From: an uncultured Poribacteria bacterium | Lineage (GTDB): Bacteria; Poribacteria; WGA-4E; WGA-3G | Length of the DNA: 64,000 bases | Direction: 5' to 3' | Assembly: GCA_958296135.2 (NCBI GenBank) | Contig: CATQHZ020000001.1 | Span: 3,552,001 to 3,616,000, forward strand | Shown: positions 14,147-29,159 of the stretch, one piece after another | Position numbering within the stretch: position 1 is the stretch's first letter | Layout of the letters: every line of letters begins with the position of its first letter | The notes under the pieces: generated by a model | What the model was told of the DNA's origin: nothing | What the model saw: only the letters and a program-made list of their open reading frames with translations | Databases searched by the model: none | Program-made: the position numbers and the translations under genes

Positions 14147-15190
14147 TCACGTTATCAAACGCGGGGCGACACTACAAAATCTCTCGCCGGTTTTCAGGTG
14201 GTATCCGTTTACAAAATCGCGCGCGTCCATCGCCTTCTTCGTTGCAGGTTGAACTTGCAAGAGTTGAAGCGTTCCTTCCCCCGTTGCGACGAGCAGCTGC
14301 GGTTCACCCGCTTCCACCCTCCCGTAGCGCGGGGGCCTGTCCGCCGCGTTTCTGACAATCTCAATTGTTCCCGGAAGCAAGGTGGGTGCCTGCTGCAGTG
14401 GCAGACAGCGGAGAATCTTGAGTCGCATATCCTCCCTGAAAAAGGCATACGCGCCGGGCCAACCTGCGGTGCCTCTCACGAGATTGTGGATAGCGGTTGC
14501 GGCGCAGTGCCAGTCAATGTGCCCTGTCTCCTTTGTGAGGCGCGGTGCGTGCGTCGCTTCGTCGTGATGCTGCGGCATCGAGAGGGGTGGCGCGCCCGCC
14601 GGCATCTCTGTCAGCACCTGCACCAACAACTTGGCACCGAGGCACGCTAACTTCTCCATCAACGTTCCGGTTGTATCCTCATCCCCAATGAGAATCCGTT
14701 CTGCACAGATAATCTCGCCGGTATCCTCTCCCGCGTCCAGCAACATCAGCGTGATGCCTGTCTCGGGCTCGCCGTTGATTAGTGCCCATTGCACCGGGGC
14801 AGCCCCTCGGTACTTCGGAAGGAGAGATGGATGCAGGTTGATAGTACCGCACGGCGGGATGTCCAACATCGCTTGCGGCAGCAGCTGCCCGAAAGCGGCG
14901 ACGATGATGACATCCGGCGCGAGGCGTTCCAGCGTTCGGATAAAACTGCGCCGCCGAACCTTTTCCGGTTGATAAACCGGTAGGTTGTGCTGTTCCGCTA
15001 CCACCTTGACAAGCGGCGGCGTAAGTTGTCTGCCGCGTCCACTGCGCCGGTCGGGCTGCGTAACGACACCGATGAGCTCATATTTGTGGGCTATTAATGC
15101 GCTCAGTGCCGGAACCGCAAATTCACTGGTGCCCATAAAGAGAATTTTCGTCTGTCGCAATGCGTTTGATAACGTTTTCCGTGCAATCAC
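14147..15190 (-). CDS. fmt: Methionyl-tRNA formyltransferase
   Basis: FMGTSEFA, VTQPD, NLHPSLLPKYRGAAP. Confidence 0.95.
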   Translation of the reverse strand: MIARKTLSNALRQTKILFMGTSEFAVPALSALIAHKYELIGVVTQPDRRSGRGRQLTPPLVKVVAEQHNLPVYQPEKVRRRSFIRTLERLAPDVIIVAAFGQLLPQAMLDIPPCGTINLHPSLLPKYRGAAPVQWALINGEPETGITLMLLDAGEDTGEIICAERILIGDEDTTGTLMEKLACLGAKLLVQVLTEMPAGAPPLSMPQHHDEATHAPRLTKETGHIDWHCAATAIHNLVRGTAGWPGAYAFFREDMRLKILRCLPLQQAPTLLPGTIEIVRNAADRPPRYGRVEAGEPQLLVATGEGTLQLLQVQPATKKAMDARDFVNGYHLKTGERFCSVAPRLIT

Positions 15191-15258
15191 GTATCTGTTC
15201 CTTTGAACCTACACAAATCGAGACAAGAGCAGAGATAACGTCTATTGCGTTACCATCT

Positions 15259-16431
15259 CTACCGTGTGGTTTGCAGCGAGTATCTCGCTGGAGGAACCCT
15301 CAAAGCACGTGACATTTCCGCTATGAAAATACCGCGTGCGCCGTTCAAATCCCTGTCACACCGATGACCGTCTGCATCAGTAATCACCTTCGCACCGCCG
15401 AGGTTCTCGACAATGTTACCTGTCCAGCTAATCGTCTTTGACGTATATGCTTCATTGGCATCAACTACAAGAACACCGTATTCCTTCGCCTTTTGCTTCA
15501 GGAACATTTTGAACTGGTAATGCGATAACGTGAGCATTTGTCGGACAGACTTTTTACGGAGCTTCCTCGCACCACGCTTTGTCATCTGCTTTGTTTCAAA
15601 CGTCGGCAGCAGGATAACGTCGTAAGTATTGACAAGGAAGTGTGCAACTTTCTTGTGTAGTTCCTTCACAAGATTACGGATTTTTAACTGAATCTTCTGT
15701 GCGCATTTTCGCAAGGTGCGCCGTAGCGGACGCTTTACTTGTGTTGCGCGGGCGTAGAGATTATCTGCATGTTGGCAGAGCCTCTGGATACGATTAATTG
15801 CATGATGTCCGAGCCAGCCGAACGCCGTTTCAGAAAACATTGTCATGAACGTCCGAACGCCAGGGTCGAGTGCTACGATATGTCCGCTTGAGTCTCGCGG
15901 TTTTGTTTTCTCGATGTAGCTGACGTTCATATAAAACCTGTCATGTTGCATGACGATGCGACTCTCCTTTACCTCAGATTCATGGTCACGTTCCGCCTTC
16001 TTGCCAGGACCTTGCGGCTTCGCGGGGAGCGGTTCTGTCATCTTCATTTCACCGAGTAAGCGGACATAAAAACCATGAGTTTTGATGAACTGCGCACACA
16101 GGTAAAACGACTTTGTGGTGTTCTTCTTCCTGCGGAACTTTACGCGTTGCGGTTCACCTGTTTCCTTCCACTTTCGCCGTGCTGCAGTCACCGCTTTCTG
16201 TGCATCCATCACTGCACCGACACGGATATGTCGAGGACAATTCGATGTCCACTCAGGCAGTGTTTTTAGCAAGTCGGGCGCATACACCTTGCGTCCTTTG
16301 TTAAACTGCTTCACCGCCTCGTTGTAGACGTAACGTGAGATACCTTCCCACCTACGGAGTCTCGCTTTCTGTGCCGTTGTGGGTAAGATTTCGATCTGCT
16401 TTGATTTCGTCACGGTAGCGTCGGAGTCCAT
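15259..16431 (-). CDS. tnpB: IS607 TnpB RNA-guided nuclease
   Basis: ALDPGVRTF, VILLPTFE, NEAYTSKT, DRDLNGARGI; start placed at ATG 16431 overlapping the end of tnpA. Confidence 0.9.
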   Translation of the reverse strand: MDSDATVTKSKQIEILPTTAQKARLRRWEGISRYVYNEAVKQFNKGRKVYAPDLLKTLPEWTSNCPRHIRVGAVMDAQKAVTAARRKWKETGEPQRVKFRRKKNTTKSFYLCAQFIKTHGFYVRLLGEMKMTEPLPAKPQGPGKKAERDHESEVKESRIVMQHDRFYMNVSYIEKTKPRDSSGHIVALDPGVRTFMTMFSETAFGWLGHHAINRIQRLCQHADNLYARATQVKRPLRRTLRKCAQKIQLKIRNLVKELHKKVAHFLVNTYDVILLPTFETKQMTKRGARKLRKKSVRQMLTLSHYQFKMFLKQKAKEYGVLVVDANEAYTSKTISWTGNIVENLGGAKVITDADGHRCDRDLNGARGIFIAEMSRALRVPPARYSLQTTR

Positions 16432-16957
16432 ACATCCGTGAGGAAAAGACGTGGAGAATCTCCAGCAAATCGGAAGTAAGTTCCTGTTCGGGACTGTGAG
16501 TAGTTTGGTTGAGAACCACGACTTCTCCACCGTTTTGCTCGATAAGATATCGAATGACTTCGCTGCCGAAGCGGGCGAGTCTATCCCGATGGGCGACCAC
16601 AACGCGGCGTTTATCACCGCACAGGACTCTGTCCAATATCCGCTGGAGGCCTTTTCGCTTGAAGTTAATGCCACTGCCGAAGTCTTGGATAACTTCCGCT
16701 TGGGGGAACTTTTCTTGCATGTAGGCGACTTGCGAGGCGAGGGCGTCCGCCTGCGCTTTTCCGCTGACGCGGCAGTAGCAAATGGTAGAAATGTCTGGTT
16801 TTCGTTGAGCATCAACAAACTTCTGGACATCGTAACGCCGATGACCGCCTCCAGTGCGCACGCAGTCGATTTCGCCGCGGGCTTCCATCCTGCGAAGGTG
16901 CTCGATGGAAATATCCAACACCTGCGCAGCGTTTTGTGGTGACATTAGGTGATTCAT
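16352..16957 (-). CDS. tnpA: IS607 TnpA serine recombinase
   Basis: MerR-like HTH with RTGGGHRRY, YCRVSG, DFGSG, HRDRLARFG, FSSRMYGLR; TTGAAA-17-TATAAT ends 6 nt upstream of the ATG (leaderless). Confidence 0.93.
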   Translation of the reverse strand: MNHLMSPQNAAQVLDISIEHLRRMEARGEIDCVRTGGGHRRYDVQKFVDAQRKPDISTICYCRVSGKAQADALASQVAYMQEKFPQAEVIQDFGSGINFKRKGLQRILDRVLCGDKRRVVVAHRDRLARFGSEVIRYLIEQNGGEVVVLNQTTHSPEQELTSDLLEILHVFSSRMYGLRRYRDEIKADRNLTHNGTESETP

Positions 16958-17114
16958 ACCTACATTATACCACATTTATTCGATTTTTCAAGTTAAAACG
17001 ACATTTATACCGATTTACTCGGATTTTCGGGGTCCAGCACTCAACTCACCGTAGTTCCGCAGGGAGCGTTGTTGTCTGACGCGTTCCTGGTGCTAATGGC
17101 TATTTTTGCGTGAT

Positions 17115-26199: not shown

Positions 26200-26327
26200 A
26201 ATTTCTCTGTATGGACGCGAAGCGTTCAAGCTGCATCCCTTGGCGGGGCCCCTCAGCTGCGTTGCGGTTGCGTTGGCATCCTTTCGGACACGTATCTCCC
26301 CAGAGCACCATAGGACGGCCACACCTA

Positions 26328-26537
26328 TTATGCGTTGGACTTGGGCGTTTTGTCGCTTTTGTCTTTCTCGGTTTCGTTGACTGCCCGGTTCAATTCGTCT
26401 TGGATATCATTGCCCGCGCTCTTAAATTCCCGGATGGCTTTTCCGAGGGAACGCCCCATTTCCGGTAACTTCTTCGGGCCGAAAACGACAAGCGCGATGA
26501 CAAGGATAACAAGGATTTCCATTCCGCCGAGGCTCAT
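26328..26537 (-). CDS. tatA: Twin-arginine translocase subunit TatA
   Basis: FGPKKLPEMGRSLGKAIREFK; AAGGAGG RBS. Confidence 0.95.
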   Translation of the reverse strand: MSLGGMEILVILVIALVVFGPKKLPEMGRSLGKAIREFKSAGNDIQDELNRAVNETEKDKSDKTPKSNA

Positions 26538-26585
26538 TTCCTATTCCTCCTTTGGTGAGATATGGCAGATTGCCTGATATGAAGA

Positions 26586-26614
26586 GTCTATCACGAAATC
26601 GGTTTTATGCCAAA
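26586..26614 (-). promoter_or_regulatory. Putative sigma70 promoter for tatAC
   Basis: TTGGCA-17-TAGACT on the minus strand. Confidence 0.5.
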
Positions 26615-27014
26615 TTAATTTACGGCTGTCGCGCTACAGGGATTCACTTGGGATGCAGCCGATGTGCTATACGGCACACAACGACTGTCCACTCCGGTCT
26701 CCAACCGAGCTACCTGTTGGACGAGCAACCAAGTGTTGAAAAATCTTTCATGCATGTGACGAATCCTTATGATAGGTAAGCGAAAAGAAAAGGTGGTCCT
26801 TCCCAATCGATAACGGGGTAGCCCCACGCGCCTCTTGACGTTTCCACTCCAGAGGCGTGACTTCATCTGTCCGCCGTGACTGATTGTGGCTCATCATGAT
26901 GTCCCCATAAAGCATTTTTGTCGCCATCTTAAACTGTTCCCCGAAGTCTCAACATATCGAGATAAGTCGAGACTTCTAAGTTCCTGCTTCATCACTTACC
27001 GCCTCCGAAACGCA

Positions 27015-27483
27015 CCTGCCGATTTTGACGTAGGCATGCTTGCGAAAGCCAAGCATGCCGAAGATGTCTTATTCTGTAAACAGAATAAGACTGCGTCAAA
27101 ATCGGAGAAATGCGAATACTACGAGGTCTTACGCGAGCACCACAGGCGTTTTGCGTCTCGGTCAAACCAGCCGCGACGTTTTCTTTGTAGTTCTAGATAC
27201 TGCAGCGAAACAATCCTTTCTCCGATTTTTGTCGGTCGACGGCGTAGGCGTTCGGGACTACCGAACGCCGAAGATGCGCATTCGGCTTTGCGAATACGCT
27301 GCGCCGTCGACCGCGCGCAGTGTCATTTGCGAACAGGTCACAGACTGACCTATTCGGTTGTTCTAGGCGATCGTGCAGTGTTATTCGGAATACCGAATAA
27401 CACATCTTCGGCGGTTTGTTACTACAAACCGCCTACACGATCGCCAGCAGTTATTACAAACTACCTACGCAAAAATCGGCAGG
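27015..27483. repeat. Nested cluster of Y-shaped GTAG/CGAAGAT elements
   Basis: Units at 27019-27105 (+), 27233-27313 (+) and 27366-27445 (-), plus an envelope at 27217-27483 (-). Confidence 0.85.
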
Positions 27484-27641
27484 GAATCGCGTCGGACTTA
27501 CGGCCCCCTCCACCGTCAGCGATGCAGTCGCACCACCGACTCTTAATACGCTTCACACGGGGGGTTAGGACATTACGCCTGCCTCTTGGTATCGTGCAGC
27601 AGGAAACGTTCTTCACGCTCCGTTCGCCATCCTCTCACCTG

Positions 27642-27729
27642 AGAGATAAAACGACTTAAATCAGATATGTTACGAATGAACGAGACTTACCGAGAATTCA
27701 ATCGATTTACTCGGATTTTCGGGCTCTAG
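27642..27729 (-). mobile_element. Non-autonomous IS607 miniature (about 88 bp)
   Basis: 27703-27734 matches 17011-17042 closely; AGAGATAA at 27642 matches 15231. Confidence 0.6.
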
Positions 27730-27781
27730 CACTCTCCTCCTTCCTAGCGGCACTGCGCGAAAACCTTGCGACTCAATTTAA

Positions 27782-27810
27782 ATTATATCACATCAAGACG
27801 GAGGTTGCAA
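27782..27810 (-). promoter_or_regulatory. Sigma70 promoter facing the non-coding locus
   Basis: TTGCAA-17-TATAAT on the minus strand. Confidence 0.7.
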
Positions 27811-27839
27811 CAAAAAAGTTGAATCGCTGCCGAAGCACG

Positions 27840-29030
27840 TTAACGGCGCGGGAAAAACGTATCAATGCCGGCATCAATATCCTCAATCGGGTGGCCGTAT
27901 TGCTGCCGATAGTTGTCGTGGATACCCTGTTCTGTCTCGGTGAGTGCCGTCAGCGGAAAGGTGAGGGTTTCTCGGCTCCGTTTGCCCGATTCCGCCATCG
28001 CGATGTTCATCTCCTGGTCTTGCCTAGCCAACAGTGCGCCGTATGCCGGCTCTGTGTCGTTAAGCACGGCAGTAGCGATGCTGAGCAATTCATCTGCCAC
28101 CGCAATCTGTCCTTCGGAGAGAGGATAGTGCTTAAGCGGGTTCTCCCACGTCACCGTCTGCTCAGGCAACTCCAACGTAATGTTCTCAATAACGGTGGCT
28201 CCATCCACGTCAATCGTGGTTCGCTTCGGCTGATATGCGATACCTTTCGCCCCAGATTGCAGTTCCTCAGCCGGTGTCACATAGATATCCTCGCCGACGA
28301 TGGTGCCTTTGCTGCCATCAATCTGCGAGATACCCGTTTGCCCGCGTCCCAAGGAACGCGCATGGATGACGTTAGAGTATACCATCAGCGCAGTCGCGCC
28401 GTTATCAAATTCAATGAAGCCGAGGCTCCAATTCTCGCTAGTGTGGTGCCGCTTCATCCTATCAATGATCGGAATCACCGGGCTAGTTTGCACAATCCCG
28501 AGTGCCGACTTCGGTTCGCCGCCGGCGCGAAGCCGCAGCATGCTCATCCCGTGATAGCCGCCTTCGTAAAAAATGCGATAAATCCGAGCGACATCGCCGA
28601 TGACATCCGCCGCGATAACCTCCGACAAGAACCGCTCGCGCGGGGCACGGTAGTAGTTCTCCGCCACTTCAAGTTTGACGTTATTCGCTTTGGCGCGTGC
28701 AATCATCAAATCTGTCGTCGGCAACGTCACAGCAATAGGCGTTTCACAGAGGATGTGAATCCCGGCATCCGCCATAAAGCACCCAACTGCATGATGCGCC
28801 ACACCGGGCACAGTAATATCAACAACATCAAGTACTTCCTGCTCAACGAGTGCACGGACGCTGGTGTAAGGTGTCGCACCGTATTGCTTGGCATAGCGCG
28901 TCGCCACCTCCTCATCTATATCACAAATTGCGACGAGGTTATAGACATCTTTGAGTTTCGCGATAACCGGCAGGTGCGCACCGCCCCCGCGCCGCCCCGC
29001 ACCGACTAAAGCAATATTGAGTTTTGACAT
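27840..29030 (-). CDS. Gfo/Idh/MocA family oxidoreductase
   Basis: ALVGAGRRG, AICDID, CETPIA, VAENY; AGGAGG RBS. Confidence 0.88.
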   Translation of the reverse strand: MSKLNIALVGAGRRGGGAHLPVIAKLKDVYNLVAICDIDEEVATRYAKQYGATPYTSVRALVEQEVLDVVDITVPGVAHHAVGCFMADAGIHILCETPIAVTLPTTDLMIARAKANNVKLEVAENYYRAPRERFLSEVIAADVIGDVARIYRIFYEGGYHGMSMLRLRAGGEPKSALGIVQTSPVIPIIDRMKRHHTSENWSLGFIEFDNGATALMVYSNVIHARSLGRGQTGISQIDGSKGTIVGEDIYVTPAEELQSGAKGIAYQPKRTTIDVDGATVIENITLELPEQTVTWENPLKHYPLSEGQIAVADELLSIATAVLNDTEPAYGALLARQDQEMNIAMAESGKRSRETLTFPLTALTETEQGIHDNYRQQYGHPIEDIDAGIDTFFPRR

Positions 29031-29159
29031 GAAAAACCTCCTAACATGGAAAATGACAGAGCCCTGTCCTTGGCCTGTCCCCACCACGCCCGAGCGAGTC
29101 AAGAACGATTGGGAGAGACAGGCCCTCGCGCTACGATGGCAGCAGCATTTGCTGCTACA

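Follow-up and report, generated by a model that had tools for sequence, protein, structure and literature searches.

A probable non-autonomous, protein-less IS607-family element with a guide-RNA-like scaffold and a structured core in a Poribacteria genome

What is encoded in a gap of 1.3 kb that holds no credible open reading frame (ORF), opens with a well-formed promoter and is crowded with hairpins? Such a gap separates a GFO/IDH/MocA oxidoreductase gene from tatA in the stretch of 64 kb from an uncultured Poribacteria bacterium presented above (hereafter the window), and a sequence-only reading had taken it for a chromosomal gene of a large non-coding RNA, of the OLE, GOLLD or ROOL kind. 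Does the promoter drive such a gene, do the hairpins belong to a single RNA, and do relatives of the host possess it? The analysis described here points elsewhere: with a probability of roughly 0.85, positions 26,934 to 27,742 on the minus strand are a non-autonomous, protein-less element of the IS607 family, which has kept both ends and the scaffold of a TnpB guide RNA, and in which a structured core replaces tnpB. The observations behind the sequence-only reading are thus partly confirmed, and its main claim, a new gene for a large non-coding RNA, is not supported. In the following, G000 stands for the source genome (contigs C1 to C4), G001 and G002 for two genomes of the same genus, and G004 for a further genome that holds the element family. 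The parts of the element and its immediate borders, from left to right in its own orientation, are:

27743..27750, minus strand: Shine-Dalgarno sequence of the host, GGAAGGAG, which ends in AGGAG, the target-adjacent motif, and which the element adjoins directly (from empty sites)
26934..27742, minus strand: probable composite ORF-less IS607-family element (from blast to six other copies; ends from empty sites)
27650..27742, minus strand: left end with AT-rich repeated motifs (seen by eye), presumed TnpA-binding sites
27455..27632, minus strand: conserved structured core, whose 3' part continues beyond insert A (covariance model R1, 143.9 bits, E 8e-34)
27221..27481, minus strand: insert A of 261 nt, situated in the loop of core helix 11, an inverted-repeat mini-element of about 88 nt into which a further insertion took place (from alignment to the minimal copy)
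27107..27220, minus strand: 3' strand of helix 11, linker, hairpin H7 and 5' half of the RAGATH-18-like motif
27017..27106, minus strand: insert B of 90 nt, a mini-element with terminal inverted repeats of about 18 nt, in the apical loop of the RAGATH-18-like distal hairpin
26934..27016, minus strand: remaining (3') half of the RAGATH-18-like motif (GAUGAAGCAGGAA), followed by the terminal hairpin GAAGUCUCGAC..GUUGAGACUUC and, last, the right end ..GGGGAACAG
26914..26933, minus strand: predicted 20-nt guide segment in the host DNA beside the right end, covering the ATG at 26925..26927 (from the TnpB/omega-RNA mechanism)

Copies, empty sites and start codons

Searching the gap by blast against its own genome yields 77 matches, among them at least seven long copies including that of the window, which is a multi-copy pattern and not that of a chromosomal RNA gene. 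The six other long copies lie on C1 (at 944751, 1558524, 824975, 2122193, 2278985 and 3031965, the last being 5'-truncated) and share 85–97% identity; every copy starts directly after AAGGAGG and ends ..GAAGTCTCGAC..GTTGAGACTTCGGGGAACAG. The shortest (C1:2122193-2122650, 458 nt, hereafter the minimal copy) corresponds to the window copy without inserts A and B, its positions 265–378 aligning to 27107..27220 at 93% identity; measured against it, 461 nt remain once the insertions are set aside, instead of the 600 nt or so that had been estimated. The DNA contigs that hold the locus, from four runs of one sample in one study, break at both ends of the element, and their summed depth is about 10-fold higher within it, as expected of a multi-copy repeat. 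A search for RNA runs that contain the locus found none.

All seven copies stand in sense orientation upstream of genes that are unrelated to each other (an IF-2B/MtnA-like gene, PhyH and others), and empty sites were found at all three loci examined. The window locus is empty in G002 (..GGAAGGAG/TTTAAAATG, the slash marking the junction, or over a longer stretch ..GCCGCACGGAAGGAG/TTTAAAATGGCAAC..) and in G001 (..GGAAAGGAGCGTAAAATG; longer stretch ..GGAAAGGAGCGTAAAATGGCAAC..), the filled site of this genome reading ..GGAAGGAG/GAGAGTGC...GGGGAACAG/TTTAAGATGGCGAC... The locus of the minimal copy, upstream of the PhyH gene, is empty as AAGGAG/AAAACACCATG in G002 and AAGGAG/AATTTACCATG in G004, and that at 1558524, upstream of the IF-2B/MtnA-like gene, as ..AGGAA/.. 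in G002, G001 and G004. The insertion point therefore lies directly after the Shine-Dalgarno AGGAG, 6–12 nt ahead of a start codon (6 nt before the ATG for the window copy), and there is no target duplication. As AG stands at both junctions (left flank AGGAG, element end ..AACAG), the boundary can be moved by 1–2 nt either way. Taken together, the seven copies at different loci, the 3'-terminal 83 nt (26934..27016) that are 100% identical in five copies, and the locus that is empty in relatives suggest movement of the element, probably by TnpA.

To what extent is the proximity to start codons a property of the family? Among the 16 right ends that could be recognized by a RAGATH-like 3' motif followed by ..GGAACAG, all from this genome, 13 are followed at 4–12 nt by the start codon of an ORF of at least 50 aa (in 12 of these 13, at least 100 aa), compared with 2678 of 20,000 random positions (13.4%) and 600 of 4980 positions after any AACAG (binomial P ~2e-9). 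Of the other three, one has a start at 30 nt, preceded by a ribosome-binding site of its own, one a doubtful TTG at 36 nt, and one none; the 5'-truncated copy at 3032448, missed by the motif and left out of this count, is followed, as judged by eye, by an ATG at a distance of 7 nt. This bias is a consequence of the target itself, since AGGAG is the ribosome-binding sequence. Targeting of AGGAG between Shine-Dalgarno sequence and start codon affects host gene expression as well as genome annotation, and a full-text search (subscription journals and supplementary files not included) returned no paper linking the target motifs of TnpB or IS607 elements to ribosome-binding sites. As a side observation, two of the seven Firmicutes RAGATH-18 loci viewed, both from Bacillus cereus (L113 and L098), have an ATG 0–7 nt after the presumed right end ..GTAGCAG, and insertion beside ribosome-binding sites may thus also occur outside Poribacteria.

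Both extremities of the element have relatives that encode proteins. Over the 155 nt at its 3' side, the minimal copy shows 75–77% identity with the DNA immediately downstream of the zinc-ribbon domain in 368-aa tnpB genes of this genome; these tnpB elements are about 1.6 kb long and end ..TTTCAGGGAACAG, the right end ..GGAACAG being common to them and the ORF-less element. Their left flanks are AGGAG in two of four cases, and GGGAG and GAGAG in one each, which brings the overall tally to AGGAG in eight of ten, GGGAG in one and GAGAG in one, the motifs expected beside the left end of RAGATH-18-type elements being AGGAG or GAGGG. Over about 90 nt, the 5' end of the element has 71% identity with the left end of a complete IS607 that lies in the window, and with that of its twin at C1:4836328. 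The relatives concerned, with the fmt gene that adjoins one of them, are:

15196..17047, minus strand: complete IS607-type element, near-twin at C1:4836328
16352..16975, minus strand: TnpA, 207 aa, with Resolvase (E 3.5e-17) and MerR helix-turn-helix domains
15259..16350, minus strand: TnpB in its best-supported reading (the longest ORF overlaps tnpA), with OrfB_IS605 and TNB domains
14147..15190, minus strand: fmt, with Formyl_trans_N and Formyl_trans_C domains
C1:2911239..2911660 and C1:3280211..3280630, minus strand: two members of a sister subfamily of the ORF-less element in G000

The complete IS607 ends ..AAAGGAACAG (..GGAACAG), 4 nt ahead of the GTG start of fmt. The assignment to the IS607 family rests on this homology of both ends and of the scaffold with tnpA- and tnpB-bearing elements. 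No serine-recombinase TnpA, nor any ORF, lies within the element, and since TnpA is encoded elsewhere, a non-autonomous derivative is the only form of IS607 that it can represent. The TnpB zinc-ribbon domain has 34 matches in G000 and 66 in G004, many of them in elements of about 1.5 kb without tnpA; outside these genomes, the nearest relative of the tnpB family was met in a metagenome-assembled genome of Candidatus Poribacteria (71% identity). The sister subfamily (two copies in G000, at least 11 in G004) inserts after GGG, ends ..AGAGCGG (..GGG/GCTCGGTGCAGTGGCG.. on the left, ..CACAGAGCGG/ on the right), and sits between genes, for example between rib genes, without a link to start codons; in G004, it has about 55 nt of left end (85–89% identity) and the scaffold in common with tnpB elements. 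Some G004 members carry a promoter-like insert (TTTACC-17-TACAAT) in the left end.

Guide-like scaffold and structured core

Which RNA would such an element produce? The Rfam model RAGATH-18 (RF03064) aligns over its full length (model positions 1–71) to the minimal copy, at 22.3 bits (E 0.13) compared with a gathering cut-off of 44.9 bits; the match includes the conserved CCUGUGGAG..AGUA..GAUGAAGCAGGAA and stops 47 nt short of the right end, and another remnant (L141) reaches 26.9 bits. The outer helix (CCUGU/GCAGG), the purine-rich internal loop (UGGA / GAUGAAG) and the inner helices of the RAGATH-18 fold are all present. Helices 12–15 covary, helices 13–15 being 98–99% paired with five pairs changed on both sides, and ten pairs of the scaffold helices show compensatory changes. 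Homologous scaffold sequence directly follows tnpB in both G000 and G004, and true RAGATH-18 RNAs (55–68 bits) were found 69–111 nt after the tnpB match in seven of the nine loci of TnpB relatives scanned, all seven from Bacillus and Clostridium, with TnpBs 30–33% identical.

RAGATH-18-derived RNAs are guide RNAs of IS607 TnpB nucleases, with a scaffold of 187 nt and a guide of about 20 nt, and AGGAG is the target-adjacent motif in 18 of 22 strains with IS607 TnpBs of the RAGATH-18 type, where it adjoins the left end (PMC11061315). Judged by its sequence, the 3' part of the element is a divergent TnpB guide-RNA scaffold of the RAGATH-18 type, for which TnpB binding and guided cleavage are predicted; the guide segment was placed on the basis of PMC11061315 and bioRxiv 10.1101/2023.11.20.567912.

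By analogy with the published TnpA/TnpB cycle, the life cycle may run as follows. A serine-recombinase TnpA acting in trans, such as the one encoded 10 kb away in the window, would cut and join at the AG core, and the host promoter would transcribe through the element, yielding its RNA by read-through. A TnpB provided in trans (34 tnpB-like matches in the genome) would bind the 3' scaffold, and the adjoining 20 nt or so of host sequence (UUUAAGAUGGCGACAAAAAU) would act as guide. Alleles from which the element has been lost, in which AGGAG adjoins a match to the guide, would then be cut by the TnpB complex, and the element would be restored to them by recombination. The right end (GGGGAACAG), being rich in purines, may also serve as a weak substitute for the ribosome-binding site.

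Between left end and scaffold, the element carries a core of about 180 nt that retains 63–74% identity across both subfamilies and both genomes, at the place where tnpB-bearing relatives have an internal promoter and tnpB, only about 55 nt of left end and the scaffold being common to both. An alignment of 13 copies (12 of them distinct; alignment A1) gave an RNAalifold structure of 88 pairs with 97.7% of cells paired. Pairs changed on both sides number 17, versus 8.1 +/- 1.6 in shuffled alignments (none of 500 reaches 17) and 1–6 in slid controls; seven of the 17 belong to core helices, three of them to a long-range closing helix (columns 58–62 with 231–235). These compensatory changes argue for selection on the RNA, and among the invariant junction sequences of the core are GGAGCGUGA, CCCCCCGUG and ACGGUGGAGG. 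Neither tblastn of 34 TnpB ORFs against two element types nor six-frame reading of six members gave a coding signal in the core; a 22-codon ORF from a GTG just after AAGGAGG was considered and rejected, as it is not kept in the sister subfamily. Among 112 genomes of the family, model R1 detects the core in two (nine hits in G000, 20 in G004), a strict pattern finds it in two of 176 genomes of the phylum, and R1 has no hit in 80 tnpB loci of other phyla. A pattern scan of metagenomes returned at least 118 stretches, and none of the 80 loci kept is similar to the element by blastn, the pattern being too loose to inform on distribution.

What could the core be for? It is kept by two subfamilies that differ in their ends and in the motif they target (AGGAG in one, GGG in the other). 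It may be a new functional RNA domain, possibly a ribozyme or a processing module, carried as cargo by IS607-derived mini-transposons in which it replaces tnpB, although we regard this as a tentative and rather unlikely proposal. As such a module, it could release or mature the guide RNA out of read-through transcripts of the host, with no need for a TnpB encoded in cis; alternatively, it could lessen the harm of landing between a ribosome-binding site and a start codon. A core that replaces tnpB would be a small candidate for a new RNA function tied to the RNA-guided maintenance of transposons.

A related but very improbable explanation is that the core is a self-splicing or self-cleaving ribozyme, which would remove the element from the mRNA as in IStrons, rejoin AGGAG to the start-codon region, and so render the insertions harmless. 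In the order of its parts (a left end, then a structured RNA and a guide scaffold, and last a right end), the element matches ORF-less IS607-type IStrons (PMC4227781 and bioRxiv 10.1101/2023.11.20.567912), it stands in sense orientation and ends in G, the 5' exons of group B IStrons also end in G, the right ends precede the start codons of mostly intact genes in the 13 of 16 cases given above, and the core helices covary, including the long-range closing helix. However, 368-aa tnpB elements that lack the core occupy the same positions between Shine-Dalgarno sequence and ATG, which undercuts this explanation, and the core is also present in the GGG-targeting subfamily, whose insertions show no link to start codons. 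At E up to 10, Rfam matched neither a group I or group II intron nor a self-cleaving ribozyme family in the minimal copy, the G004 copies or a tnpB-bearing relative, a search run without a known IStron as positive control. No guide sequence complementary to AGGAG was seen by eye, and looking for this and for other group I features (P/Q/R/S-like boxes) gave nothing consistent between the subfamilies. Rfam was run at this relaxed threshold on the region, the minimal copy, six G004 loci, the tnpB element and other remnants; apart from RAGATH-18, the sub-threshold matches (LINC00901, MIR7486 in a flanking palindrome, RT-3, STnc560 and a Fluoride fragment) were set aside as chance.

Even less probable is a decayed remnant of tnpB or tnpA, in which the core would be old coding sequence devoid of an RNA function. 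Derivatives of insertion sequences with internal deletions are generally known to be common, and TnpB residues ~360–383 weakly match positions 305–367 of the minimal copy by tblastn (E ~7e-4); at these positions, the scaffold overlaps the 3' end of tnpB in the matching families. Against a decayed gene, upstream of about position 305, tblastn gives only short and weak hits (best E ~0.8), the open frame shifts between members and several have stops in all frames, the compensatory changes argue for selection on RNA, and the tnpB-bearing relatives have only the left end and the scaffold in common with the element. The test by tblastn, which the sequence-only reading had proposed as a way to expose a decayed protein gene, thus lent no support to one.

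Several points nevertheless weigh against a protein-less IS607 element with a guide scaffold. No Poribacteria copy reaches the RAGATH-18 gathering score of 44.9, the best being 26.9, and the motif goes undetected in six G004 loci and in the window copy, where insert B splits it; with 90 nt inserted inside its scaffold, this copy may be inactive. The covariation stems from about 4–5 lineages in two genomes, and the structure comes from the very alignment on which it was assessed. The core is unexplained by a mobile-element model. As the element lacks tnpA and tnpB, its mobility and guide function depend on predicted trans factors, and the transcription, processing and guide use of its RNA are predicted from published systems. 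Finally, no contig bridges an empty site in the sample, which gives no sign of ongoing excision, although contigs cannot show absence.

Nested insertions, promoter and neighboring genes

Why did the gap look like one highly paired RNA? The impression is correct as far as the composite goes: an 812-nt stretch of the window folds better than its shuffles (z -8.39, none of 20 shuffles as good). The excess, however, belongs to the two nested inverted-repeat mini-elements, the minimal copy (about 458–461 nt) folding no better than shuffled sequence (z 0.06, with 50 of 100 shuffles folding equally well). The repeat cluster and the mini insertion sequence that had been described are indeed present, the latter measuring 90 nt instead of 88 bp. 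The pieces of insert A have 10–23 matches each in the genome, and a DNA joint that skips its 261 nt (27220 to 27482) occurs in contigs from other copies; insert B, which accounts for the inverted-repeat pairs I2 and I4, has about 15 matches. The positions of both inserts are common to five of the seven copies, which suggests that the composite form still moved.

Every nested insertion falls within a predicted loop or linker, in agreement with the view that insertions are tolerated in loops: the loop of helix 11 holds insert A, the distal RAGATH loop holds insert B as well as the insert of L049, the loop of helix 7 a 36-nt palindrome found in G004, and the linker before RAGATH the insert of L053. 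As for the helices proposed from the letters, the hairpin GAAGTCTCGAC/GTTGAGACTTC was recovered as inverted-repeat pair I3, CGCCTCT/AGAGGCG lies outside the element, within the coding region of the small downstream gene, and the long-range pairing TTCCTGCT/AGCAGGAA competes with helix P1 of the RAGATH-18-like motif. P1 is the better-backed of the two, as its sole variant in the set (L050, columns 337/485, G-C to C-G), set against the unchanged aligned core segment, favors it. A structured RNA is thus retained, as a divergent RAGATH-18-type scaffold with an additional domain of about 180 nt that shows compensatory changes, and the stand-alone gene is not.

Several small repeats were met along the way. 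The mini-elements of about 88–90 nt, with terminal inverted repeats of about 18–20 nt (..GCCGATTTTGACGYAGG..), occur at about 15 further places in G000, and also insert into other elements, including the left-end region of 368-aa tnpB elements. The GC-rich 36-nt palindrome of G004 (GGTATTTACCCTGCAAAGCAGGGCGAATACC) was inserted repeatedly (L050-L059; L053, columns 293–328 of alignment A1), always in loops or linkers of the element RNA, and resembles a REP-type repeat. GC-rich palindromes of about 60 nt (CCGGTAGGCGCG..CGCGCCTACCGG) flank several loci of G000 and G001 (L006 1413..1476; L043 ~780-960; L146); they are the source of the spurious MIR7486 match and probably another REP family.

The host sequences around the element are:

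27840..29102, minus strand: GFO/IDH/MocA oxidoreductase gene (from Pfam)
27782..27810, minus strand: sigma-70-type promoter of the small downstream gene, TTGCAA-17-(TG)TATAAT, 10 of 12 matches, in host DNA outside the element
26748..26927, minus strand: small downstream host gene, reduced to 59 aa (orthologues of 130 aa in G001 and G002)
26613..26585: promoter candidate of tatA, TTGGCA-17-TAGACT
26328..26537, minus strand: tatA

Both promoters had been read correctly from the letters, that at 27810..27782 with its TG before the -10 box and that of tatA as a separate candidate, and no long ORF is conserved in the locus. The first promoter, however, is the small gene's own and not that of an RNA gene, because G001 and G002 keep both, the TTGCAA-17-TATAAT box standing upstream of the orthologous small gene in each, and lack the element. 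The orthologues (L044 1794-2183, minus strand, and L043 1134-1523, plus strand, in G001 and G002) encode 130 aa each; in this genome, about 216 nt are gone from the middle of the gene, which has no Pfam family. This deletion fits a loss of expression after the insertion, as the element may have separated the gene from its ribosome-binding site. The other genes downstream of such insertions (fmt, the MtnA-like gene, PhyH) are intact.

The least probable of all the explanations, a cis-regulatory leader shared between genes or a stand-alone large non-coding RNA gene transcribed from TTGCAA/TATAAT, can draw on the strength and conservation of this promoter, on the sense orientation of seven of seven copies and on a structure with covariation, but is contradicted by the empty sites of G001 and G002, whose leaders have promoter and gene only, by the unrelated genes downstream of the copies, by homology with the ends of tnpB elements, by presence in only two of 112 family genomes, and by the lack of a match to any large-RNA family of Rfam. 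Lack of conservation in relatives had been named in advance as speaking against such a gene, and upstream of tatA the element is indeed missing in G001 and G002. The proposed search for known large-RNA classes was equally negative: at gathering score, Rfam has no match anywhere in the 64-kb window, at E up to 10 it has a single chance match (E 9) in 26300..28000, and, even up to E 10, neither the region nor the minimal copy matches the models of OLE, GOLLD, ROOL, raiA, RNase P, tmRNA and SRP, in line with the earlier statement that motifs of RNase P, tmRNA, SRP or introns are lacking. A false lead is thereby removed, the promoter-driven, hairpin-rich gap without ORF consisting of mobile elements stacked within a 5' leader.

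As a side note on the genome itself, contig C2 (143,886 bp) has 36.8% G+C, compared with 54.4% for the 5.0-Mb C1, and C3 and C4 have 67% and 60%; C2 to C4 may be foreign contigs in the bin (stated contamination 3.6%).

Comparison with known systems

How does a protein-less IS607 element of this kind relate to systems already described? With the large RNAs OLE, GOLLD, ROOL and raiA, it shares a length of several hundred nucleotides, the lack of an ORF and many helices; unlike them, it is multi-copy, mobile and patchily distributed, has ends homologous to insertion sequences, and matches no Rfam family. Another parallel is provided by PATEs, natural non-autonomous derivatives of IS200/IS605 that bear an omega-RNA, lack ORFs and depend on TnpA and TnpB in trans. 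The element is likewise ORF-less, with both ends and a guide scaffold, and is predicted to depend on trans factors; it differs from PATEs in its IS607 chemistry (serine recombinase and AG core, instead of HUH enzymes and single-stranded DNA hairpin ends), and in an internal RNA domain carried as cargo.

With group B IStrons, including the ORF-less BcISt1, the element has in common IS607 ends, a G-ending target and a structured RNA 5' of the guide region, as well as the existence of ORF-less variants and insertion in sense inside transcribed host sequence (PMC4227781); unlike in these, no group I intron was detected in it (at E up to 10, and without a known IStron as positive control). A "mini-IS" devoid of tnpA and tnpB, derived from an IS607 IStron, is excised by TnpA (bioRxiv 10.1101/2023.11.20.567912). 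The excision assays used 581 bp of native left end for the Clostridium botulinum IStron, more than the 270 nt that lie ahead of the scaffold in the element.

There is also a likeness in architecture with IS607 TnpB elements of the ISFba1 type (PMC11061315), in which AGGAG lies beside the left end, terminal inverted repeats and target duplication are lacking, and the guide scaffold follows tnpB and folds like RAGATH-18 about 47 nt short of the right end, as in the element. Unlike these, the element lacks tnpA and tnpB, scores below the RAGATH-18 cut-off, has an additional domain of about 180 nt at the place of tnpB, and resides in a Poribacteria host. It would provide a natural example, outside Firmicutes, of TnpB guide-RNA elements that survive without a nuclease gene of their own.

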